A stretch of DNA of 64,000 nucleotides, from contig LSNO01000017.1 in assembly GCA_002082305.1 (NCBI GenBank), positions 813 through 64,812 of the forward strand. The letters are read 5' to 3'. The notes beneath the pieces are model-generated. The model saw only the letters and a list, made by a program, of their open reading frames with translations. It had not been told where the DNA came from and searched no databases. Shown here in pieces: positions 4,778 to 53,127 of this stretch; the first letter of the stretch is position 1; every line of letters starts with the position of its first letter. Position numbers and translations under genes: made by a program. The DNA comes from SAR324 cluster bacterium SAR324-CTD7B (GTDB lineage: Bacteria > SAR324 > NAC60-12).

Positions 4778-5356
4778 TTACTGTTCCCATGAAACAATAT
4801 CATGCTCCAAATCTACATCCAGAGCATCAGCTATTCTGTTGATATAATTGAAATAGCTAATTACCTGAACCGCATCATGAACTGCAGTTTGACTAAATCC
4901 TAAATCCAATAAATGTTTAATGTCAGCTTCGGACATTTCAGCAGGAGTTAAAGTCAACTTCTCAGCATATTCACAAAGTGCATAATCGGCAGATTTTAGT
5001 CCCGCATTCTTCCAATCTTGAGCTATTTGACGTACAAACTCATCTGTAGCAACAGGATCCTTAATCTCTTTTGCAACCTCAACACGGAGGTCGTTTGCAT
5101 GAGAACGAATTCAATATATACAATGATTTGCAGATGAAACAACTGTAGCCAGCATTTCTCTTTGAGAACGTGAGAGCGGAGATTCACCAAACATAATAGT
5201 TTGATAGAATTTCATTGAATCCTTCAAAACTGGTGGATTCTGGCTCATAATGCTGACGATGTTCCAAATCTTAGCTGCTCGTTTAATTGCTGCGTCATAT
5301 TGTCTTTTTAAAAGCCCTTTTGCTTCTGAATGCTTAATAATAGTTATCCAAGCCAT
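4778..5356 (-). CDS. AhpD/carboxymuconolactone decarboxylase-family peroxidase-related protein, predicted selenoprotein (in-frame TGA at 5111-5113 = Sec82)
   Basis: The track ORF 5111-5356 ends '...VVSSANHCIY' at a TGA. The same frame continues 110 codons ('IRSHANDL...YFNYINRIADALDV...') to TAA at 4778-4780. The motif N-x-C-x-Y-[C]-x-x-S-H has TGA at the second Cys position. A hairpin lies 17 nt downstream of the TGA. Confidence 0.8.
5074..5093 (-). promoter_or_regulatory. candidate bacterial SECIS stem-loop
   Basis: On the minus strand this reads CGACCUC-CGUGUU-GAGGUUG: a 7-bp stem (one G-U pair) with a 6-nt apical loop containing GU. It starts 17 nt 3' of the in-frame UGA. Identified by hand folding only. 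Confidence 0.5.
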
Positions 5357-5374
5357 AATTATAATTTATAAAGA

Positions 5375-5522
5375 ATTTAAATTTGACTGTCCCGAAAATA
5401 GTCTGAAATCTAAACTGTCATTTCGACCGTAGGGATAAATTTTAATGATATTAGTACTCTCACTTAAACAAGATTTCTCATTTCGCTAGAAGTGAAACGG
5501 TTTGAGGGTTTTTTTACGACTG
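5375..5522 (-). repeat. MITE-like intergenic repeat, copy A (inverted relative to copies B-D, more diverged)
   Basis: The reverse complement aligns by eye with 10530-10683 and 52794-52942. Shared blocks include 'ggtcgaaatgaca', 'agtact', 'tgagaaatctt' and 'cagtcg'. It sits between the mscS stop and the selenoprotein start. Confidence 0.6.
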
Positions 5523-5632
5523 AATCATATTTGTTAATGAGAAAATAATATATATACATAATATATTTATATTTTTTTTATACATATTTATCATAATTTT
5601 AAAATAATTGTTATCTTATATTTTCAATATAA

Positions 5633-6900: not shown

Positions 6901-8607
6901 CTACTCCGGATATAAAGGTTCCAACTGTGACTGTCCTTTGTTATTATTAAATTTTTTATCTAATAAAGAAACCTTGAGAAAATCATTAAATAAATTCTCC
7001 AATGAACTTTCTTTTGTTTGATTATTTCCGTAGAGTACAGAATTTAGATCATTTATTCCATTCTTTAATTCCGGCATTCTTTCCCCAATTTGTTCTAAAC
7101 CTTGCGGAGGATCATCAGTCCAAACTGCAGTACCCCATTTTAAAAGTGCCGTTTGCACAATTCCGGGATCTCCGGAACTAAAAGCTTTTTCTGCATTTCT
7201 AGTTGCTTCTCTAAGAGCGTTCTTCCGATCCTGTATAAATTTGTTTTTATTTTTAGTGACAGCAGCAGCTTTATTATTTTTATTTATAAACCACATCAAC
7301 ATTGTTGCGCACCAAAGAAATGCTAAACCGAAGGCCAATATCTTCCAAGGGAATGATTCTATTGCCGTTTCTTTTTCCTGTAGAACTTTTGCAGTTGCTG
7401 CCTGATTTGACTGTAATTCAGGAGTTTCCTCTTCAGGTATTTCCTGTAAATTTTCTGGTACAGGAAGTATATCAAATATTTTTGGAGATATGACTGCAGT
7501 CTGAAGCGTATCACTTTTAATGTCCCACCAACTGACAGAAACTCCCGGAAGTTCAATTTTTCCTGGATGACTTGGAATAAGAGCCCATTTTTCCAATCGC
7601 ATCCCTTTAAGTCCCTTTTCCGTTTTTTCTGTCTCAATTAAAGGTTGATCTGCATATCCCTTCAAAGTAACAGGATAATCAAATTTTAATTCCGGAATTT
7701 GATTCCCAGAAACACCATTTGCAAAAATCACAAGAGTTCTAGTCACCGGTTCTCCTACTCTAAATACCGGAGGATCCGGCTGCCACTTTTCTTCTATCAC
7801 AAGTTTGTCTGTCGGCAGCCACCAGTTCTTGAAACCTGACGGCAGCGGCTTAACTTCAACTGATTGCGTTGTACTTGTACTAAATATTCTTCGTCCCCGT
7901 TTTTGAAAAAGATTGCCAAAATTACCAAAATTATTTTGTGATGGACCTCTTTGAATTATTTCACCCTGATAACGAACCTGTGGAATAACAAGTGTCCCGC
8001 TTTTTTCCGGAATCACTGCATATAAAATTTCAGTAATCTTATGTTTTTTCCCATTTTTGACAGTCTGGTAGGATTTTTGACTTAGCTCCTCTACTAGTGC
8101 TTCCTTCAGTTCAAACGGTGTAATCGTTTCATTTTCCAGTTGTACTCCAGTTCGAGAAATACTTAATCGGACGAGAATCTGCTGCTGTGGATAAACTTTT
8201 TTGGGAACAACCTCCACTTCAAGACTAACATATTTCTGCTGCTGATTCTGTGAGTATGCAGTCACTTTTAATGCAATGGGAGTGCTTTGCTCATTTCCTA
8301 CCTGGAGGGCTGGTATCAGGTAATCTCCGGAAGATGGAGCAATCATAATATAGGTCCAGCTCAAAGTTCTTGTGATAGAAGTCCCAACGATGGAGGTTCG
8401 ATTTTGCACACTTCGATTCAAAATTTGCAAACCGGTAATTCCGCTTAAATCTGGTTCCTCGGCATCATCAACATTTTTTGCTTCTACATGTAACTGGAAC
8501 ATGTCTCCTACCACTACCGGATTTTTATTTACCCATGCAGTAACATCGCCCCAGGCTGGATTACCGGCCAATATCAAGATTCCCAAAATAAATAGTTTTA
8601 TCATCAT
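6901..8607 (-). CDS. batD: BatD-like oxygen-tolerance protein
   Basis: 568 aa with a signal peptide, repeated beta-rich modules, one C-proximal TM segment ('WKILAFGLAFLWCATMLMWFI') and a position abutting the batB/C stop, as in Bat operons. Confidence 0.75.
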   Translation of the reverse strand: MMIKLFILGILILAGNPAWGDVTAWVNKNPVVVGDMFQLHVEAKNVDDAEEPDLSGITGLQILNRSVQNRTSIVGTSITRTLSWTYIMIAPSSGDYLIPALQVGNEQSTPIALKVTAYSQNQQQKYVSLEVEVVPKKVYPQQQILVRLSISRTGVQLENETITPFELKEALVEELSQKSYQTVKNGKKHKITEILYAVIPEKSGTLVIPQVRYQGEIIQRGPSQNNFGNFGNLFQKRGRRIFSTSTTQSVEVKPLPSGFKNWWLPTDKLVIEEKWQPDPPVFRVGEPVTRTLVIFANGVSGNQIPELKFDYPVTLKGYADQPLIETEKTEKGLKGMRLEKWALIPSHPGKIELPGVSVSWWDIKSDTLQTAVISPKIFDILPVPENLQEIPEEETPELQSNQAATAKVLQEKETAIESFPWKILAFGLAFLWCATMLMWFINKNNKAAAVTKNKNKFIQDRKNALREATRNAEKAFSSGDPGIVQTALLKWGTAVWTDDPPQGLEQIGERMPELKNGINDLNSVLYGNNQTKESSLENLFNDFLKVSLLDKKFNNNKGQSQLEPLYPE

Positions 8608-10440
8608 TTACCAATATTGTTCATTTGTAAAATTTTGTTTTCCGCGGCGTTGAAATTCCCTTTCCATTTTGTTGCGTAACAAGCGCCCGGGATCATCAGG
8701 TATTTTTCTCAACCATTGTTCAAGGAATTGCTGTTTGGCAAGATCAACCGGAGTTGAATCCTGTTTCTTGTTTTTTGCGTTTTCTTTTTCGGCAGATCCA
8801 TCAATTTTTTTCTGCCCTTCTTCATTATTTGGAGATTCAGTTTTTTCTTCATCAAATTTTTCATTATTTTTCTCTGCAGTTGATTCCTTTTCAGCATTAT
8901 TTTTTACGGCCTCTGCAGTCTGCTGATCACTGGTACCCGCATTGTCACCAGAAGAATCCTGGGCGGACTGTGCATTTTGTTTTTCCTGAGTTTGGCTAGA
9001 GCCATTCTGTTGATCCTGTTTATTTTTTTGATTTGCACCCTGTTGTCCCTCCTGCTGTTGTTTTTTCTTTTGTTGTTCTTTCAGTAGTTTTTCAATCAAA
9101 TCATGATTGTACTGAGCATCTACGTCTTGCGCATTATCTGCTAAAACCCGCTCAAAAGCTTCCAGTGATTCCTGTAACCGTCCTGCAAAGGCCAATGCAT
9201 TTCCACTGTTGAAATTGGCCCGTGAATGATTCTGTTGAGAAAAATGCTCAATTGCTTTTTCATAGTCGCCAGATCGATATGCCGCTGCCCCTTTCCATTC
9301 CGAGCTTTCAAAAAGTTCAGCTGCTTGTTTCGTTTCACCTTGCTGAAACAATTTAGCTGCCTGCTGGTCCGGTCGTAACCATAAATCATCCCATCCGAAT
9401 GCGAGTGCTGAAGAAGGCCTTGCTGTGACTCCAAGTAATACTGCAAATCCAATTGAAAACAATAGACCCCTACGAAACAGCAACGCTGCCATGGGCAAGA
9501 CAAGTAATAAGAGCCATGGTCCTTCTTCATTCCACTTATCAGAAGTTCTCTGCTGTTTGTCTTCAACATAATCATCTGCAGCAGTTTCTGCTGCAATGAT
9601 TTGCTCCACATCCCGATCATCCGGACTCAATTTTGTGAAGGCACCATGAGTTTGAGCGGCTAATTTTTGTAAAGGTTTTAAATAAAGTTTTGGTATTACA
9701 ATTCCCCCTTTTTTGTCTTTAAGAAACCCTCCTCCAGACAAGGGGATCGGTGAGCCGGATTCAGTTCCAACTGCAAGAATTGACAGGCGATTCAAACCAA
9801 CCGCATTTTCTGCTGCTGGAATATCCTGTACTTCAATACCGTCTGTAACCCAGATGATATGTCCAGTACCGCCATTCCTCCGGCTTAAAAGATCTGCAGC
9901 AAGTTCAATTGCAAGATCTGAACGACTTCCGGGAAGAGGCATAATATTCGGATGAAGCCCCGTAAGAAGAGACGCAATGGTGACAGGATCATGGGTCAAT
10001 GGGCTGATAACGAATGCATCTCCTGCATATACGATAAGTGCAGTTTCACCTTCAACAAAATGTCCTAGCAGGTCTTTCAATTTGAAACGTGCTCGCTCAA
10101 ACCGTGTTGGTTTTATGTCTGTTGCCAGCATGGAATAAGATAAATCCAAAACCAGTACTCTGGCCAGTGATTTTTGCAGCAGTGGCTGTAGATTCTTTTG
10201 CCAGACAGGTCCGGACAAAGCCAGCAAAAGAATAGTACCGACTAAACAGATGATCCATGGCAGCAGACTCCGTTTTTGCTTTGCCGGAGTTGTTGCAAGA
10301 AACGACAGCAAATGCGGTTCTACCACATCTTCCCAGTTTCCTTTGCTCCACCATCTTCCAAGGAAACGAAAAACCATCCACCAGAGAACTGGTATTGCTA
10401 TTAGCCACAGAGGGCGTAAAAATTGAAATTCTGATAACAA
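8608..10440 (-). CDS. batB: fused BatB/BatC-like protein (TM + von Willebrand A domain + TPR + K/Q/E-rich low-complexity tail)
   Basis: 610 aa. The N-terminus 'FQFLRPLWLIAIPVLWW' and VWA MIDAS 'VLDLSYSM' resemble BatB. TPR-like 'AAYRSGDYEKAIEHF...GNALAFAGRLQESLEAFERVL' and C-terminal 'WLRKIPDDPGRLLRNK' resemble BatC. TTG start. Confidence 0.78.
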   Translation of the reverse strand: MLSEFQFLRPLWLIAIPVLWWMVFRFLGRWWSKGNWEDVVEPHLLSFLATTPAKQKRSLLPWIICLVGTILLLALSGPVWQKNLQPLLQKSLARVLVLDLSYSMLATDIKPTRFERARFKLKDLLGHFVEGETALIVYAGDAFVISPLTHDPVTIASLLTGLHPNIMPLPGSRSDLAIELAADLLSRRNGGTGHIIWVTDGIEVQDIPAAENAVGLNRLSILAVGTESGSPIPLSGGGFLKDKKGGIVIPKLYLKPLQKLAAQTHGAFTKLSPDDRDVEQIIAAETAADDYVEDKQQRTSDKWNEEGPWLLLLVLPMAALLFRRGLLFSIGFAVLLGVTARPSSALAFGWDDLWLRPDQQAAKLFQQGETKQAAELFESSEWKGAAAYRSGDYEKAIEHFSQQNHSRANFNSGNALAFAGRLQESLEAFERVLADNAQDVDAQYNHDLIEKLLKEQQKKKQQQEGQQGANQKNKQDQQNGSSQTQEKQNAQSAQDSSGDNAGTSDQQTAEAVKNNAEKESTAEKNNEKFDEEKTESPNNEEGQKKIDGSAEKENAKNKKQDSTPVDLAKQQFLEQWLRKIPDDPGRLLRNKMEREFQRRGKQNFTNEQYW

Positions 10441-10529
10441 AATAATTAACGAATATTAGGCTGGTGCTTTAATGAAAATTCACCTGAGCCGGGGTTGTTC
10501 ATGATTTATACTTGCTTTGAATGAATAAC

Positions 10530-10683
10530 TAGACAATCACGAGTTTTAGCGTGTCATCCCAAACGTATGTGAGGTATCTTATAAGAAATCAGTACTTTAT
10601 CAGATCTCTCCCTTCAGTCGAGATGACATACCGGAGTCAATACTATTAGTATCTTACAAAATTTCATGACTCCCGAGATGAAC
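10530..10683 (+). repeat. MITE-like intergenic repeat, copy B
   Basis: Roughly three-quarters identical by eye over ~150 bp to 52794-52942. Internal inverted arms are GTCATCCCAAACGTATGTGAGGTATCT (10553-10579) and AGATCTCTCCCTTCAGTCGAGATGAC (10602-10627). It is flanked by AATAAC at 10524-10529 and 10684-10689. Confidence 0.8.
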
Positions 10684-10813
10684 AATAACAGATGCACTTA
10701 TTATTCAGCTCTTTGTTTTCAGTCAGAAAATTCTTTATAAATTATCTGATCAATGACGGCTAAATATTTCTTTCTTTTTAGATCAATTACGAAACTTAAC
10801 ATAATAAATATGA

Positions 10814-11830
10814 TTAGTTTCTAATCAATAAAACGGCTGACCATATTCCAACTATCAGTACTGCAAAACCCAGCGGCCACATAAACAAGGCTTGACGGGG
10901 ACGGAAAACCTCTTTTTCTATTTCCAACGGTTCAATTTTATCAATCATTGCATAAATTTTTTCCAGTTCTTCTGTACTTCTCGCCCGAAAATATGTACCA
11001 CCAGTCTGGCTTGCTAAAGATTTCAGCATTGCTTCATCAAGTTCTGCAGATGGATTAATTTTTTGCTTGCCGAAAAAAGCCCTTATCCATGCCTCATCTG
11101 CACCAATACCAATGGTGTGGATCCGTAGCCCCGTTTCTTTAGCTAAACGCCCTGCATCTTCAGGAGTAACCTCACCGGCGGTATTTTGACCATCTGTGAG
11201 CAACACCAATACTTTTTCTTTATCCGGAAGATCTTTCATACGTTTTACGGCCAGTCCGATTGCATTACCAATTGCAGTTCTCTGTCCGGCAAGACCTAAT
11301 TCAGACTCTTCAAGCATTTGCCGCAATGTTTTCCGGTCGAAAGTCAGTGGAGTTTGCAGATAAGCCTGATCTCCAAACAGAATCAGCCCCAGCCGGTCGC
11401 CTTTTCTCCGCTCAATAAAAGGCCTCAAAACTGATTTTACAACAGCCAGCCGCGTCACGGATTCACCGTGAAGTTCCAGATCCGTTTCTTTCATACTTCC
11501 GGAAAGATCAACCGCAAGCATCACACTTCGGCCGGAAACAGGTAATTCTACTGGATCCCCAACCCATTGCGGCCGCAGTGCTGCCAGAACAATCAAACTC
11601 CAGACCAATCCGGCTAACAGCAAGACTTTTGAGTTTTTTCCAGCTGAAATTCCGGATTTAGGCAAAACTGTAATTCTATGAAAAAAAGGTACACGAAGAG
11701 ACTGAACTGACCTATCAACTGGTGGAAGAACACGAAACAATAAGGGCAGTGGCCAGAACCACGCCACCCAAAGCCAAATAAATTCAAACACACCATTCTC
11801 AAATAAAAACATTTTCCGTGCTTTGTTCAA
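10814..11830 (-). CDS. batA: BatA-like VWA domain protein
   Basis: 338 aa with N-terminal TM helices, VWA MIDAS 'AVDLSGSM' and 'LLTDGQNTAG', and a C-terminal TM helix. The TTG start at 11830 overlaps the upstream stop (TTGA). An alternative ATG lies at 11812. Confidence 0.85.
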   Translation of the reverse strand: MNKARKMFLFENGVFEFIWLWVAWFWPLPLLFRVLPPVDRSVQSLRVPFFHRITVLPKSGISAGKNSKVLLLAGLVWSLIVLAALRPQWVGDPVELPVSGRSVMLAVDLSGSMKETDLELHGESVTRLAVVKSVLRPFIERRKGDRLGLILFGDQAYLQTPLTFDRKTLRQMLEESELGLAGQRTAIGNAIGLAVKRMKDLPDKEKVLVLLTDGQNTAGEVTPEDAGRLAKETGLRIHTIGIGADEAWIRAFFGKQKINPSAELDEAMLKSLASQTGGTYFRARSTEELEKIYAMIDKIEPLEIEKEVFRPRQALFMWPLGFAVLIVGIWSAVLLIRN

Positions 11831-12309
11831 TGCTGCTGACTACAATCCATAATCCATTTTTTTACCATTGGAAACAAAACATCTATTTCAATTTCCGGAT
11901 TTTGCTGATAAAGTTCCTTTCCAAATACATGCCCTGCTCCTTGAGTAAATTCAGTGGTTTTTCCTGTTCTATCAAGAAACTCCAACCATTCGGATCCATG
12001 CAGTGAAGCTACATTTTCATCTGCACAAAAAGTCAATGCAACCCGACGCAGTAATTGCGATAAATCCCTGAGTATTTCCAATGATTCTTCGGTATTATTT
12101 TGTTGATTTTGCAGATTTTTTAACAATCGCAGAGCTTCAGTTTTGGGTTTTCGCCGTTCAAAACGTCGACTGATCCACATTCCGCAAAACACAAAAATCA
12201 AAAGCAGTACTACTGCCACAATCCACCAGCCTGGAGCCGGAGGCCAAATTGCAACAGCTGGTGGTAAGTGAATGTCTTTTAAATTTATTAGAGGATTTTC
12301 TTCCGGCAT
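11827..12309 (-). CDS. DUF4381-like membrane protein (Bat/MoxR operon component)
   Basis: 160 aa. 'LKDIHLPPAVAIWPPAPGWWIVAVVLLLI' is the characteristic N-terminal motif plus TM helix. It lies between DUF58 and batA. Confidence 0.75.
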   Translation of the reverse strand: MPEENPLINLKDIHLPPAVAIWPPAPGWWIVAVVLLLIFVFCGMWISRRFERRKPKTEALRLLKNLQNQQNNTEESLEILRDLSQLLRRVALTFCADENVASLHGSEWLEFLDRTGKTTEFTQGAGHVFGKELYQQNPEIEIDVLFPMVKKWIMDCSQQH

Positions 12310-12342: not shown

Positions 12343-13260
12343 TTAAATCTGTGAAACATTGTCCACTGTACTCAGCATTTTCAAGCTTAGCCTGCAGAGT
12401 TGTAATTCGTGCTTTAAACTTTTTAGCTGATCTTCATAAGTGGAAGCATAGAGTTGACGTGTTTTTGAATTTTCGGAGTTAACCCAGGCAACAGCTTCAC
12501 CGTCACTCATTGCATAACGTCCGGAAGATGGTGCTTCTTTTTCCAGAGGATCTGAAATTAAAAAGGCAGCCAGCTGATTTTGTTTGGAAAGTTGAAACAA
12601 GTGCTTCCGGCATTCTGCATTAAATCCAGAAAAATCACTGAATATGTAAATCAAACTTCCCGGATGTACTACTTGTCGCACACGCCTCAATGCCTGGGCA
12701 AAAAGAGAATTGCTACCAAAACTCCATTCATTATTATTCATCCTGTCTGCAATTCGATTATGCTCAGTCATAATATTTGAAAGCAAACGTAAAAAATGTC
12801 GACGGTCACTTCTTGGTTTGAATTCCCGATGCATTTCTTCTGAATATATAACACCTCCAACTCGATCTCCCCGTAGAAGTGCCCTCCAACCCGTCAAAGC
12901 GGCAATACGGGCTGCTTGAACTGATTTTAATCTTTGGCGAGTTCCAAAAAACATCCGGCGGGACAGATCCAAAACCAGCATCACTGGACGCTCACGTTCT
13001 TCCCTGAACAACTTAGTGTGTGTCGTGCCCGTTCGTGCCGTCACCCTCCAGTCAATATGACGCACATCATCTCCGTACTGATAAGAGCGGGCTTCAGCAA
13101 ACTCCATCCCTCTTCCCTTGAGTTTAGTCAAATATGGACCTCCAAGTGATCCAACATTTTCTGCAGTCAACAACAGTCCTTTCTTATGGGCAATCCTAAC
13201 CAATTCCGGCAACTCCATTTTTCCAAGAAATATTCCATTTTTTTCAGCAGCATCTTTCAT
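12343..13260 (-). CDS. DUF58 domain protein (MoxR-associated, VWA-like)
   Basis: 'GMEFAEARSYQYGDDVRHIDWRVTARTG' is the DUF58 signature. The track ORF extends to 13332, but that overlaps the upstream gene by 68 nt. The ATG at 13260 sits 4 nt after the sulfatase stop. Confidence 0.85.
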   Translation of the reverse strand: MKDAAEKNGIFLGKMELPELVRIAHKKGLLLTAENVGSLGGPYLTKLKGRGMEFAEARSYQYGDDVRHIDWRVTARTGTTHTKLFREERERPVMLVLDLSRRMFFGTRQRLKSVQAARIAALTGWRALLRGDRVGGVIYSEEMHREFKPRSDRRHFLRLLSNIMTEHNRIADRMNNNEWSFGSNSLFAQALRRVRQVVHPGSLIYIFSDFSGFNAECRKHLFQLSKQNQLAAFLISDPLEKEAPSSGRYAMSDGEAVAWVNSENSKTRQLYASTYEDQLKSLKHELQLCRLSLKMLSTVDNVSQI

Positions 13261-13264
13261 TTTT

Positions 13265-15169
13265 TTATTTTTCCGGCCATACTCGGTTTTCCTGCAAAAC
13301 CCAGCGAATAGTTTCAATCCAGGATGATCCAATTTCCTTCAAGTGCAGTCCTTTTTGATTGTCCTGATCTCCAAAAAAATGATCTCGCTGGTCATTTTCA
13401 CGATAATAACGTGATTTTTCTTCAATGACCGCCCAATATGCTCCAGGACGATTTGTAAATGCACGTTGAGGCACATCAGTCAGCAAATCAACTGAATTCA
13501 ACAATGAGCGCCCTACCCAGGGAACTATGTATTTTTTACGTAAAATATCCAAAATTGTAGGTGCCAAATCCACTTGACTGGCATGTTGAGTGATAATAAG
13601 TCCCTCAGATTTTTTTCCTAGGGCTGTGGATTTACCTGATAAAATAAGTAACGGAACTTGAGAATGCAGATTAACAAATTCTTCATAATTGTTGGTATGC
13701 TGTTCCGCATTTTGATAACTGGAAGTATCTGCAGTCACAAAAATAATGGTATTTTTAAACCACGGTTTTTTGGAAATCCTTTTAAGAAAGCCCCCCAACA
13801 TGGCATCAGTATAGTGTAAAGATTCTCGGTAGCGGTCTGTCACTGAATCTCCCGCTTGAAGCCGATAATTATCCGGGACTTCAAAAGGATGGTGATTGGT
13901 TGTAGTTAAAGCTGAAGAGAAAAATGGTTCCGGCTCACTGTCTAAAACAGTTTCCCATTTCCGGAAGAGGTCTTCATCAGAAATCCCCCAGCCAAGTGTC
14001 ACGGCCCCGTTTGGGAAATCAAATTCATCTACAATTTTATCAAAGCCGACTTTTGGCAAAAATGTGGACTGTCCGTCAAAGTTTGCATCAGAACCGTAAA
14101 CCCATGAGGTGTAATAACCTGAATTTTTTAGGTATTCCGGAAGACACATGAAACTGTTCCTGGTGTAGCGCTTCATAACAGCAGCACCGTAATTTGGAAA
14201 CAAAGAACAGTAGGTGGCCACCTGTCCATGTCTGGTTTGAAAACCGTTTGCGAAAAAGTTTTTATATAATATTCCGTGCTTGGACCAGCGATCAAACTCC
14301 GGAGTAAGCCCCAACTTGCTGCCGTAAACACCTACTTCCGCAGCCCTAAATGACTCCAGGAACAATATTAAAATATTAGGTCTGTCTGCAGTTGTACACA
14401 GAATTTTAGTAAGCTCAGAATGATTCTGTCCAGTACATCCTGTTGCCTCACGTATTCGCACGAGCGGATAATTATCCCATATTTTTCCTGAAGGTTTTTT
14501 ACCTTGAATTAATGTCTCCACTATTTTTAGAGATTTTTCAGGACGAAGAATTTTTTTATCAGGTTCACGATCTTTGGAATAATAAAAATATTGCAATGCT
14601 GCAGATGTAAGCGGATTTTCCATGTTTTTTGAAACATAGGAATTACTGTAACTTGCAGCAGGCCCCCCAATTAAAATTATAAACAGGAGCGTTGATGCCC
14701 TGCACTTAAAATCTTCTTTCCAACTGTTCCGTTTTTTCCCAAAACGCCAAAGCATAAACACCAGCATCACCGAAGGGAAAACGAATAAAATCCAAAAAGT
14801 TATGTCATTTACTGCATGTGCTGCGGATGACAAAAATGCACCGCTATCATTCAAATATTCAATGGTAGAAAAAGGAAGGTGGGTACCAAAAATCAAAACG
14901 TAATGGTAATCTGTGAACAGGAAAGCAAATAATCCAAGACCAAGAATGCTGAAGAAAATTTTCCTAAATAAGATTGGAAAAGGAGAAATCACAGCTAATG
15001 TGCTGAAAATAGCTCCGTTCATCACGTCATAACCCACACCAAGTGCATAGGCTTGGAACAACCGCTCACTCCAATCAGAATTCAACTGAAGCAAAAAGGA
15101 ATGTTGAACTATGCCTGCCAGAGAAACAACAAAAAACAGAACCACAGCCGTTGGGTCAAGATATTTCAT
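13265..15169 (-). CDS. LTA synthase / sulfatase-family membrane protein (alkaline-phosphatase superfamily)
   Basis: 634 aa with five or so N-terminal TM helices and an extracytoplasmic domain carrying 'NILILFLESFRAAE', 'ANGFQTRHGQ' (putative Thr nucleophile) and 'TTTNHHPF', as in LtaS/MdoB-type phosphoglycerol or phosphoethanolamine transferases. Confidence 0.8.
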   Translation of the reverse strand: MKYLDPTAVVLFFVVSLAGIVQHSFLLQLNSDWSERLFQAYALGVGYDVMNGAIFSTLAVISPFPILFRKIFFSILGLGLFAFLFTDYHYVLIFGTHLPFSTIEYLNDSGAFLSSAAHAVNDITFWILFVFPSVMLVFMLWRFGKKRNSWKEDFKCRASTLLFIILIGGPAASYSNSYVSKNMENPLTSAALQYFYYSKDREPDKKILRPEKSLKIVETLIQGKKPSGKIWDNYPLVRIREATGCTGQNHSELTKILCTTADRPNILILFLESFRAAEVGVYGSKLGLTPEFDRWSKHGILYKNFFANGFQTRHGQVATYCSLFPNYGAAVMKRYTRNSFMCLPEYLKNSGYYTSWVYGSDANFDGQSTFLPKVGFDKIVDEFDFPNGAVTLGWGISDEDLFRKWETVLDSEPEPFFSSALTTTNHHPFEVPDNYRLQAGDSVTDRYRESLHYTDAMLGGFLKRISKKPWFKNTIIFVTADTSSYQNAEQHTNNYEEFVNLHSQVPLLILSGKSTALGKKSEGLIITQHASQVDLAPTILDILRKKYIVPWVGRSLLNSVDLLTDVPQRAFTNRPGAYWAVIEEKSRYYRENDQRDHFFGDQDNQKGLHLKEIGSSWIETIRWVLQENRVWPEK

Positions 15170-15416: not shown

Positions 15417-16427
15417 TTAAGGAACGGCCACCTGAGCAAGAATTTTTGCAATCACGTCATCGGTGGTAATACCATCAGATTCAGCTTCATAACTTTCAAT
15501 AATTCTGTGACGCAGCACGTCACCGCTTAAATCCTGCAAATCTTCCGGAGTGACAAAATCACGTTCATGCAGCCAGGCACGGGCACGGGCGCACCGGTCA
15601 AGTGACAGCGACCCTCTAGGACTGGCACCCCAGGTGATCAAACGTGCCAACTCATCGCTATATTTTTCCGGAATCCTTGTGGCTGCAATAATCTCAACCA
15701 AATAACGTTCTATTTCAGGCGCCATGTATATATTCAGTGCTTCATTTCTTGCTTCAAAAATATGTACTGCAGAAATTTTTCGTCCTGCAGATTTTGTTCC
15801 TGAATCAACCGCAGATTTCGGACTTTTATCCGATGAAATTTGAATTTCACTCAAAGCTTCTTTTCGGACAAGGCGCATTATTTTTAATTCATTTTCTATT
15901 GAGGGATAGTCTATAAATACGTGAAGTAAAAAACGGTCAAGCTGCGCTTCAGGAAGAGGATACGTCCCTTCCTGTTCAATAGGATTTTGTGTAGCCATCA
16001 CCAGGAACAAATCCGGAAGAGGATACGTTTGTCCACCAACCGTTACCTGCCTTTCGCCCATAGCTTCCAGAAGAGCCGATTGGACCTTTGCGGGAGCACG
16101 ATTAATTTCATCTGCCAAGACTAAATTATGAAAAACCGGTCCTGACTGAAAGTGAAAACTACCCTCTTGGGGACGATATATGTCCGTCCCTGTTACATCG
16201 GCAGGTAATAAATCCGGAGTGAACTGTATACGTTGGAATTCTCCCTCAATCTTTTCACCAAGAGCTTTAATTGCACGGGTTTTTGCCAGACCGGGGGCAC
16301 CTTCAACTAAGAGATGTCCGTCTGCTAACAGTACTATCAATAAGCGTTCTATCAGGCGTTCCTGTCCTAAAATGATTTGATTTAAATCGGCTTGTAACTG
16401 ATGAAATATACGTAATGAATTTGACAT
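15417..16427 (-). CDS. MoxR-family AAA+ ATPase
   Basis: 336 aa with 'LLVEGAPGLAKT' (Walker A), 'LVLADEINRAPAKVQSALLEAM' (Walker B / sensor) and 'ATQNPIEQEGTYPLPEAQLDRF', the textbook MoxR signature. Confidence 0.93.
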   Translation of the reverse strand: MSNSLRIFHQLQADLNQIILGQERLIERLLIVLLADGHLLVEGAPGLAKTRAIKALGEKIEGEFQRIQFTPDLLPADVTGTDIYRPQEGSFHFQSGPVFHNLVLADEINRAPAKVQSALLEAMGERQVTVGGQTYPLPDLFLVMATQNPIEQEGTYPLPEAQLDRFLLHVFIDYPSIENELKIMRLVRKEALSEIQISSDKSPKSAVDSGTKSAGRKISAVHIFEARNEALNIYMAPEIERYLVEIIAATRIPEKYSDELARLITWGASPRGSLSLDRCARARAWLHERDFVTPEDLQDLSGDVLRHRIIESYEAESDGITTDDVIAKILAQVAVP

Positions 16428-44952: not shown

Positions 44953-45145
44953 CGACAGTTGCAAATTATTCTAACATTATGGTTTTAGATAACCTTTTCA
45001 AATTTATTTTTCATTCCAGCGAAAGCAGGAATCCGTGCCATGAGCAGATCTAGGTAAAGTATTTCAGCTATACAAAATTCCTGGATTCTCTTTTACGCGG
45101 GAATGACAACTTTTTACAAGTACGTCACAACAGACTCATGAAATC
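44953..45145 (+). repeat. MITE-like intergenic repeat, copy D (diverged, with internal insertions)
   Basis: It shares 'cgacagt', 'gttttag', arm TCATTCCAGCGAAAGCAGGAATCC, arm GGATTCTCTTTTACGCGGGAATGACA, and 'ttacaa...tcatga' in the same order as copies B and C. Confidence 0.6.
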
Positions 45146-52770: not shown

Positions 52771-52793
52771 ATTTTTCGTGTATATTTAATTAA

Positions 52794-52942
52794 CTCGACA
52801 GTCACGAGTTTTATCATGTCAACCCAAACGTATGTGAAGGATCTTATAAGGTAACAGCACTTTATCAGATCTTTCCTTTCGGTCGAGATGTCATTCAGCA
52901 GTCAATAATATGAGTGTCTTATGAAATTTAATGGCTCGCGCC
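52794..52942 (+). repeat. MITE-like intergenic repeat, copy C
   Basis: It aligns end to end with copy B (10530-10683) and is bracketed by the 8-bp direct repeat TTAATTAA at 52786-52793 and 52943-52950. Confidence 0.8.
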
Positions 52943-53127
52943 TTAATTAATTGTGATAAACTCAAAAAAAATAAGCAACACATGTTTGACATTCATTAAC
53001 AGCCAATAAGCTATTATATCATAAACTTACATGTTCAGTAATTTTCATTCCACAATCAATTCGATAACTAGTGTTGTCGGGGTTACAACCTGTTACTAAA
53101 GCATCAATAACAGCTTATTATTTTAGC

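Follow-up and report, generated by a model that had tools for sequence, protein, structure and literature searches.

Correia/NEMIS elements of Neisseria and the RUP, ERIC and Nezha elements are non-coding, high-copy miniature inverted-repeat transposable elements (MITEs) of 100-160 bp; they have terminal inverted repeats (TIRs), lie between genes or within operons and are co-transcribed with their neighbours. Correia elements carry TIRs of 26 bp, a TA duplication and an IHF site. None of these four groups is known to contain hairpins of the Ssn-related motif (SRM) class. Here we examine a repeat, referred to as F1, one copy of which (copy B) separates two genes of the Bat operon in SAR324 cluster bacterium SAR324-CTD7B. 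It lies within the 64,000 nucleotides that were analysed (hereafter the window; contig LSNO01000017.1, C70:813-64812), which belong to a draft genome of 2.8 Mb in 148 contigs with 42% G+C. Copy B is very probably a MITE that entered the batA-batB spacer, by then already enlarged, in an ancestor shared with the sister species (G004), and whose core is a pair of Ssn-class hairpins. The closest architectural precedent for F1 appears to be QMITE2 of Coxiella burnetii (Wachter et al. 2018), a MITE of 150-190 bp with TIRs, variable direct repeats of 7-11 nt and a palindrome of the repetitive extragenic palindrome (REP) type as its core; its shorter copies are bare REPs and its copies are conserved between strains (PMC5896051). 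Compared by description rather than by sequence, in which no resemblance would be expected, the REP of QMITE2 is GTAG-tagged and a target of IS1111, whereas the core of F1 is a TGTC-tagged pair.

The closest relatives of this core appear to be hairpins that have been described from two sides. Di Nocera et al. (2013) presented them as CGTC-tagged REPs of Bacteroidetes, Chlorobi and Proteobacteria, in which the tag is often TGTC, the stems start with A-T and head-to-head dimers predominate; these repeats had no associated transposase and no link to REP-associated tyrosine transposases (RAYTs), and a target duplication is nowhere mentioned (PMC3733652). Chenal et al. (2025) described the Neisseria Transformation Sequence (NTS, CGTCATTCCCGCGMAVGCGGGAATCYRG), with dRS3 included, as the substrate of SsnA, a small GIY-YIG protein. 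Binding requires that NTS be single-stranded DNA, and cleavage takes place a few nucleotides upstream; the C that follows the palindrome and the three bases ahead of it are critical (PMC11893778). The NTS-ssnA-NTS layout was noted to resemble an insertion sequence and the wider SRMs were defined, but mobility was not demonstrated, and Ssn is described solely as a hydrolytic single-strand nuclease, without strand-transfer activity (PMC11893778).

The genes on either side of copy B are 373 nt apart, while the other junctions of the Bat cluster measure -4 to +33 nt. This disparity had been pointed out in an earlier interpretation made from the letters alone (the sequence-only reading), whose gene identities are confirmed by Pfam. 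The same reading saw that the gap resembles 52794-52942 and judged the two about three-quarters identical; the kinship is real and the identity higher, at 83% over 150 ungapped nucleotides (10526-10675 versus 52791-52940, repeat finder; BLASTN E = 1.5e-38). It also counted four family members. A search of the whole genome with BLASTN and three rounds of nhmmer recovered 36 full-length copies of 149 nt on at least 30 contigs, about 75-86% identical and with bit scores of 88-157, and the central palindromic part alone was matched at about 30 further places on both strands. When the 36 copies were aligned with 40-nt flanks (MAFFT), similarity began and ended abruptly. The consensus (CTCGACAGTCACGAGTTTTATCGTGTCATCCCGAACGTATGTGAGGGATCTTATAAGATATCAGCACTTTATCAGATCTCTCCCTTCGGTCGAGATGACATGCCGCAGTCAATAATATCAGTATCTTACGAGAATTCATGACTCACGAG) contains no start-to-stop open reading frame (ORF), with stops in five of the six frames and no start codon in the sixth.

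The ends of F1 are imperfect inverted repeats of the form CTCG-nn-AGTCA-y-GA, which replace the CACGAG and CTCSSGAG motifs proposed previously; in most copies the two ends agree at 11-12 of the 14 positions, and for positions 1-4, 7-11 and 13-14 this is true of the majority of the 36. Between them lies the palindromic core, a head-to-head pair of TGTC-tagged hairpins with the consensus arms TGTCATCCCGAACGTATGTGAGGGATC and TGTCATCTCGACCGAAGGGAGAGATC, each with an (H)GTC tag on the 5' side and a C directly 3' of the palindrome. The arms of copy B had been located correctly (10553-10578 and 10603-10627), but the expectation that each forms a hairpin holds only in part for this copy: as single-stranded DNA the left arm has lost its ability to fold alone (0 kcal/mol) and the right arm folds weakly (-1.5 kcal/mol). 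Full-length copies are confined to the genus, and all 36 are intergenic. As the earlier interpretation also had it, both orientations occur: 24 copies lie between tandem genes (14 in the same orientation, 10 in the opposite one), nine between divergent genes and one between convergent genes. Convergent spacers are thus nearly devoid of F1 (1/34) and divergent ones hold nine copies; the element may have preferred AT-rich promoter regions when it inserted, or copies in 3' regions may have been selected against.

Target-site duplications (TSDs) accompany many of these copies. The flanking 8-mers agree at a mean of 5.1 of 8 positions, against 3.15 of 8 in controls made by cross-pairing the flanks of F1 copies, and agreement at seven or more positions is found for 13 of the 36 copies versus 0.5% of the controls. 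Taken per position, the signal is present only at k = 8, with a weaker one at k = 7. The TSD is 8 bp, sometimes 7, in an AT-rich target of T...A type; perfect examples are TTCGAACA, TTCTGTTA, TTAATTAA (copy C), TCAGTTAA, TTAAGTTA and TAAAGTAA, and duplications of 7-8 bp recur in F1 copies of three congeners (G012, G013 and G017). At copy B, the AATAAC hexamers that the sequence-only reading had noticed on both flanks do overlap the true duplication (ATGAATAA/ATGAACAA), out of register. With TIRs of 12-14 nt and a duplication of 8 bp, F1 differs from the Correia elements, with their 26-bp TIRs and TA duplication.

An empty site had been suggested as something to look for in relatives, and the batA-batB junction provides it. 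In G016 a block of 158 columns is precisely absent, corresponding to the 149-nt element plus one 8-bp duplication, and altogether the whole block is missing in 8 of 11 congeners. The repeat and the Bat genes thus show no conserved synteny, and the condition that the sequence-only reading had named as its refutation does not hold. Seven species have a spacer of about 40 nt; that of G017 measures 139 nt and that of G016 266 nt, against 373 nt here and 376 nt in the sister species, which carries the orthologue of copy B and whose BatA-like protein is 98% identical (73-98% across the congeners compared). Even when the MITE is left out, the spacer of this genome (10441-10528 plus 10686-10813) amounts to about 215 nt, versus about 40 nt in the seven congeners, and only the 60-90 nt adjoining batB are common to it and to the spacer of G016. 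The N-terminus of batB/C, counted from the TTG start, is conserved among congeners. Before the MITE arrived, the spacer appears to have undergone an earlier insertion or expansion. Together, sharp ends, TIRs, TSDs above control and precise empty sites bear out the view that a mobile or REP-like repeat, rather than a gene-specific regulator, occupies this gap.

The family seems to have inserted repeatedly over a long period, since empty sites are found both ways and other insertions are shared across divergent species. Where G012 and G013 have insertions, the corresponding sites are uninterrupted in this genome; for instance, G013 has TCAATCAA followed by the element and ...TTAATCAA, versus a single TTAATCAA at C147 here. 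Conversely, the insertions at C142:13188, C82:13867 and C115:257 are common to species whose flanks are only about 75-82% identical. All 19 F1 copies retrieved from G004 are orthologous to copies of this genome, with flanks about 96-97% identical; none of them has moved since the two species split. The locus itself is present in many marine DNA metagenomes. These orthologous copies differ at 7.8% of sites, compared with 5.2% in their 150-nt flanks, and the arms are the fastest-changing parts (10.9% and 9.1%); we read this faster-than-flank divergence as neutral decay. Because 19 of 19 copies are shared and because their divergence is no lower than that of the flanks, F1 appears to be a fossil family, inactive since the separation of the sister species. 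The genome has no ssn-like gene and, among the transposase genes searched, none that matches the F1 ends.

The arms themselves have a much wider distribution. Read inward from GTCAT, they take the form GTC-AT-YYC-GA-SC-GNA-GS-GA-GRR-AT-C, with a 5-bp stem, a tandem G-A step, 2 bp, a GNA triloop and a CTT tail. A 25-nt IUPAC pattern of the arm carries 42 bits, so that less than one chance match is expected in the 596-Gb species collection that was searched; it was found in at least 120 stretches. These come from isolates and from metagenome-assembled genomes (MAGs) and span more than 15 phyla (Acidobacteriota, Chloroflexota, Planctomycetota, Gemmatimonadota, Desulfobacterota, Bacteroidota, Ignavibacteriales, Nitrospirota, Patescibacteria, Omnitrophota, Verrucomicrobiota, several proteobacterial classes, Cyanobacteria and one Nanoarchaeota MAG). 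The pattern left all combinations open at three stem pairs, and 137 arms were scored there: the first is T-A in 96 and C-G in 39, the second C-G in 99 and T-A in 36, the third G-C in 109 and C-G in 26, with two mismatches at each. Fisher's test gives p < 1e-25 for every pair, and there is not a single G-T wobble. The arms thus form a conserved hairpin, and covariation that is Watson-Crick only, without G-T, resembles pairing of DNA rather than of RNA. Rfam, searched at the gathering score and at E <= 10 with the element, the whole window and 16 hairpin loci elsewhere, returned nothing relevant, the sub-threshold matches being generic hairpin-like ones; the arm sequences, used as strings, gave no match in the literature. 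Clustering of the ORFs at 120 hairpin-bearing loci yielded only generic families (ABC ATPases, response regulators), and long-range arm pairs enclose ordinary genes.

By their form the arms belong to the class that comprises CGTC-tagged REPs, the Neisseria NTS-dRS3 repeats and SRMs. This agrees with the likeness to GTCATTCC...GGAATGAC repeats that the sequence-only reading had proposed, as the arms are of the GTCAT-tagged class (PMC3733652, PMC11893778). With the CGTC-tagged REPs they share the CGTC or TGTC tag, the A-T start of the stem, the head-to-head dimers and the absence of a RAYT association. These REPs, however, have a stem of 8-9 bp, a loop of 4-5 nt and a CCA-like tail; the F1 arms have nine stem positions, of which two are G-A, a loop of 3 nt and CTT as the tail. 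The REPs were also reported without transposase, TIR or duplication, whereas F1 has TIRs, duplications and empty sites. The likeness to SRMs and NTS lies in a hairpin that is oriented, carries an unpaired (C/T)GTC tag, begins its stem with AT and has a C right after the palindrome, in copies that are intergenic and often form inverted pairs, and in the gene of a GIY-YIG protein of about 95 residues that such hairpins flank in relatives. The stem of the F1 arms is not a continuous GC-rich one but has 5 bp, followed by the G-A step, 2 bp and the GNA triloop; the F1 pair is packaged with TIRs of its own and an 8-bp duplication, which is not described for SRMs; and this genome has no hairpin-flanked ssn gene. 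Several variations on the theme were observed in other phyla. Two to four tandem half-arm units of 19-23 nt (GTCATTTCGAGCC ACTCTTCCT ...) often precede a full hairpin (L118 of Chloroflexota, L140, and L142 of a Desulfatirhabdium MAG), and tandem arrays of whole 101-nt hairpin-pair units also occur. Elsewhere, hairpin pairs form part of longer palindromes whose outer inverted repeats are specific to the lineage (L133 of an Ignavibacteriaceae MAG; L074 and L117 of Desulfobacterota; L080, L091 and L093 of Acidobacteriota); these outer repeats, e.g. GATCGAGACTGTGTAAAAAG, TAGTGCCTGAACGAAAAC and AACAGGCTGCGGAAAAAC, share a ...G.AAAAA... motif with the ends of the sister family F2 described below.

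A Pfam GIY-YIG search over nine genomes of the genus recovered one small ssn-like gene (G017:C54:16316-16564; 58 bits). It is bracketed by inward-facing arms in the same relative order as those of F1: the upstream hairpin is identical to the F1 right-arm consensus at 28 of 30 positions and the downstream one to the left-arm consensus at 27 of 29. In relatives the gene encodes a single-domain GIY-YIG protein of about 95 residues, in which the spacing of Y10, Y21 and E68 equals that of Y6, Y17 and E64 of SsnA. The ORF of G017 has 83 codons and is frameshifted, with the conserved C-terminal motif in the +1 frame, and on the orthologous marine contig L244, where F1-like hairpins also lie at the ssn-like gene, there is a frame problem at the N-terminus; with these two lesions, the gene is in decay within this lineage. 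Inward-facing arms also enclose the homologues of G035, G031, G023 and G030, and among 38 metagenome ssn-like loci arms are present on at least one side in 33 and on both sides in 17. The same Pfam search found no hairpin-flanked ssn gene in this genome or in G004, and a sequence search for a solved structure of SsnA found none. The only small GIY-YIG ORF here, of 92-96 residues (MHYVYIIHSDNDQFYIGYSS...), lies within a 23S rRNA gene (C29:29702-29917), where the rRNA sequence to its left and right is typical of domain IV/V, and has no flanking GTCAT hairpins; it looks like an intervening sequence or an intron-borne nuclease.

We favour a scheme in which a trans-acting DDE-type transposase would have recognised the outer ends of F1 and made a staggered cut in the target. 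TIRs combined with a duplication of fixed length are the signature of a staggered-cut transposase, from which we infer that such an enzyme was supplied in trans. Insertion duplicated 7-8 bp of AT-rich target, and the imperfect TIRs of 12-14 nt are the outermost part of the element. Because the same two hairpins flank the ssn-like gene of a congener, F1 looks like a gene-less ssn cassette, in which a 24-nt spacer would have replaced the gene and to which transposon ends would have been added. The outer ends, and not the hairpins, are favoured as the part that the mobilising enzyme recognised, since a 112-nt subfamily that lacks consensus positions 29-64, and with them the left arm, is present at three G017 loci (L055, L056 and L057), and since the ssn units of other lineages have no outer TIR or duplication. 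Copy B itself would now be inert, read-through DNA that lengthens the operon spacer without acting as a terminator, a promoter or a small RNA (sRNA) gene. As single-stranded DNA it folds no better than its shuffles (z = -0.3 and -0.9 for the two strands), a scan of the consensus predicted no terminator in the element, and promoter-like matches occur at the level of chance when compared with shuffled controls. Metatranscriptome contigs from three runs tile the whole batA-batB gap, which is compatible with read-through.

A number of observations weigh against this scheme. No autonomous element with F1 ends was found in this genome and eight congeners, among DDE_Tnp_1, Transposase_mut and Y1_Tnp genes; the genomes compared are all MAGs of 51-92% completeness, and insertion sequences frequently fail to assemble in such genomes. 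About one third of the F1 copies have no recognisable duplication, which may reflect their age. Neither the ssn units of relatives nor 40 metagenome units show an outer TIR or a duplication. The arms of F1 and F2 fail the literal SRM string of Chenal et al. (HGTCWYN(0-2)YYVSBRHN(0-5)WNVSBRGN(0-2)RNCYNB, used as a regular expression), which does match an NTS example, because of their internal G-A/G-A step. Finally, the metatranscriptome contigs are unstranded and assembled, with possible DNA carry-over, and are weak evidence for read-through.

Several candidate partners were discarded. IS256-type transposases (PF00872) are nearly absent from the genus, with a single fragment that has different ends; the DDE_Tnp_1 (PF01609) elements of this genome have unrelated inverted repeats; and half-element matches in G016 and G009, considered as a split autonomous element, proved to be one orthologous half-remnant between ordinary genes. 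A fuzzy search of the genome for solitary F1 ends returned only two truncated remnants (C55:8257 and C146:26917). The second of these, 25 nt of the right end of F1, lies 680 nt away from an IS4-like transposase fragment with a DUF4372-type N-terminus (C146:27590-28056), which runs off the end of its contig. The fragment looks unrelated, and its nearness is probably coincidental.

That no DDE partner was found leaves room for another view, in which F1 derives from an insertion sequence-like hairpin-ssn-hairpin cassette and the Ssn nuclease itself helped to mobilise it; a single-stranded copy could, for example, be excised by Ssn next to the GTC tags and integrated by host functions. The near identity of the F1 arms to the ssn-flanking hairpins of G017 and of marine contig L244 would fit, as would the generality of the hairpin-ssn-hairpin layout, which its authors likened to an insertion sequence (PMC11893778), the GTCA(C/T)GA half-tags placed exactly 7 nt from each end of F1, and the coincidence of ssn loss or decay in this lineage with the inactivity of F1. 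We nevertheless regard this origin as unlikely. Ssn has no described strand-transfer activity (PMC11893778), and an 8-bp duplication implies a staggered double-strand cut of the target, which is not known for this enzyme; the 40 metagenome ssn units mentioned above have no outer TIR and no duplication, and the variant devoid of one arm still spread in G017. It is similarly doubtful, and at best a minor possibility, that F1 and F2 record the general way in which CGTC-tagged REPs and Ssn-motif hairpins spread, with the hairpin pair moving, Ssn cutting GTC-tagged single-stranded ends and integration occurring at a stagger of 7-8 bp. If this were true, Ssn cassettes would represent a novel type of insertion sequence, organised around a GIY-YIG nuclease, with F1 as the MITE that belongs to it.

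Two further explanations are much less probable still. In REPINs, an inverted doublet of short imperfect palindromes is the replicating unit, and the head-to-head core of F1 is such a doublet, so that a RAYT (an IS200-like Y1 transposase) might be suspected of having moved it; moreover, the sole RAYT-like Y1_Tnp gene of this genome (C35:9625-10404, minus strand, HUH motif NHIHLL) has an F2 copy (C35:10826-10968) about 420 nt upstream. Across eight hairpin-bearing genomes, however, an arm lies within 1.5 kb of only 2 of 20 Y1_Tnp loci, and no locus has arms on both sides. The REPINs of Pseudomonas and Enterobacteria have a GTAG tag, a flanked RAYT gene, no TIR beyond the palindromes and no duplication, none of which fits F1: its hairpins are tagged TGTC, and Y1 transposition proceeds without a target duplication or a need for TIRs, both of which F1 has. 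CGTC-tagged REPs, too, were reported without a RAYT association (PMC3733652). We give equally little credence to the idea that F1 is a family of sRNA genes, or that copy B is a selected cis-regulatory RNA of the Bat operon (internal terminator, promoter or processing site). The element is indeed intra-operonic and covered by metatranscriptome contigs, and with one convergent copy against nine divergent and 24 tandem ones, this strong depletion from convergent spacers means that most copies sit at promoters or in 5' untranslated regions. Yet the same junction is empty in most congeners, orientation relative to the neighbouring genes is mixed (14 same, 10 opposite), no Rfam family matches, and neither the terminator and promoter predictions nor the folding rise above shuffled controls. 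Orthologues diverge faster than their flanks, the arms fastest of all, and covariation that is restricted to Watson-Crick pairs, with no G-U, fits DNA and not RNA.

The window holds three other repeats that the sequence-only reading had grouped with copy B (Table 1). Copy C is a genuine F1 element, and its orthologue is present in G004. The supposed diverged relative at 5375-5522 belongs instead to the sister family F2, with which F1 has only the two arm hairpins in common, and its borders are shifted accordingly. F2 elements are about 143 nt long, number about 30 and are near-perfect palindromes from end to end, with long TIRs (TGATGCAGTCGTAAAAAGTCCTAAAAC...) and the arms GTCATTTCGAGCGAAGCGAGAAATC and GTCATTTCGACCGTAGGGAGAAATC; their flanks hint at a shorter duplication of 4-5 bp, for which the evidence is weak. 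The segment labelled copy D shows no significant alignment with F1 or F2 (local scores 29-42), and the kinship claimed for it is not demonstrable; this hairpin doublet, unrelated or of a third type, has relatives of its own elsewhere in the genome, including C125:65775-65895. A 116-residue ORF separates the F2 copy on C35 from the Y1_Tnp gene of that contig, on the other side of which there is no repeat. Within the window, the F2 copy ends about 28 nt upstream of the start codon of an 81-residue ORF (5111-5356, minus strand), of which the C-terminus alone matches the first 40 positions of the CMD/AhpD-like family. The sulfatase-family gene of the Bat cluster, which encodes 634 residues, lies between the MoxR ATPase and DUF58 genes, outside the canonical Bat gene order.

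Table 1. Positions of copy B and its parts, of the other repeats and of the Bat cluster genes in the window (position 1 is the first nucleotide of the window)
Feature	Position	Strand	Evidence or remark
F1 MITE, copy B	10529-10677	+	149 nt, antisense orientation in the Bat operon; family-profile search (nhmmer), E = 1.2e-41
Left TSD copy ATGAATAA	10521-10528	.	7/8 match to the right copy
Right TSD copy ATGAACAA	10678-10685	.	7/8 match to the left copy
Left TIR of copy B, CTAGACAATCACGA	10529-10542	+	Family consensus CTCGACAGTCACGA; end-to-end comparison of 36 copies
Right TIR of copy B, reverse complement CTCGGGAGTCATGA	10664-10677	-	End-to-end comparison of 36 copies
Left arm of copy B, TGTC-tagged hairpin GTCATCCCAAACGTATGTGAGGTATC	10553-10578	+	Decayed; family consensus GTCATCCCGAACGTATGTGAGGGATC
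Right arm of copy B, TGTC-tagged hairpin GTCATCTCGACTGAAGGGAGAGATC	10603-10627	-	Minus-strand reading
F1 MITE, copy C	52794-52942	+	Perfect TTAATTAA duplication at 52786-52793 and 52943-52950, 8/8
F2 element, copy A	5384-5527	-	Long TIR TGATGCAGTCGTAAAAAGTCC..., two GTCATTTCGA... arms
Hairpin doublet TTCATTCCAGCGAAAGCAGGAATCC ... GGATTCTCTTTTACGCGGGAATGAC, copy D	44953-45145	+	Unrelated or third type; own relatives elsewhere in the genome
MoxR AAA_3	15417-16427	-	Bat-type cluster gene, Pfam
Sulfatase	13265-15169	-	Bat-type cluster gene
DUF58	12343-13332	-	Bat-type cluster gene, Pfam
DUF4381	11827-12309	-	Bat-type cluster gene, Pfam
batA-like VWA gene	10814-11830	-	Upstream operon neighbour of the MITE; Pfam VWA_2 / VWA
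batB/C-like VWA+TPR gene	8608-10440	-	Downstream operon neighbour of the MITE; Pfam VWA_2 + TPR
BatD	6901-8607	-	Bat-type cluster gene; followed by MscS, then an AhpD/CMD-like ORF

On the evidence of its ends, duplications and empty sites, F1 can be considered a bona fide MITE that carries a pair of Ssn-motif hairpins as cargo; both kinds of repeat were already known, and their combination appears to be a variant. For the Bat operon, the insertion looks inconsequential, a piece of old, decaying selfish DNA in a spacer. For genome annotation, such elements are of practical concern, as small ORFs predicted in them (...VIPN..., ...ISPFGRDD...) are spurious and MAG assemblies break at them. The wider interest of F1 comes from its duplications and empty sites, because these document that such hairpin pairs have transposed as units. 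CGTC-tagged REPs, also known as SRMs, are among the most widely distributed short repeats of bacteria; as to how such hairpins multiply, no transposase emerged from the work of Di Nocera et al., and Chenal et al. demonstrated recognition by a nuclease but not mobility. F1 provides a countable case of a hairpin pair moved as a discrete unit, with defined ends, duplications, empty sites, both ancient and lineage-specific insertions, and a deletion variant that was itself propagated. Since the pair that moved is the pair that flanks an ssn gene in a congener, the question of how these hairpins spread becomes testable.

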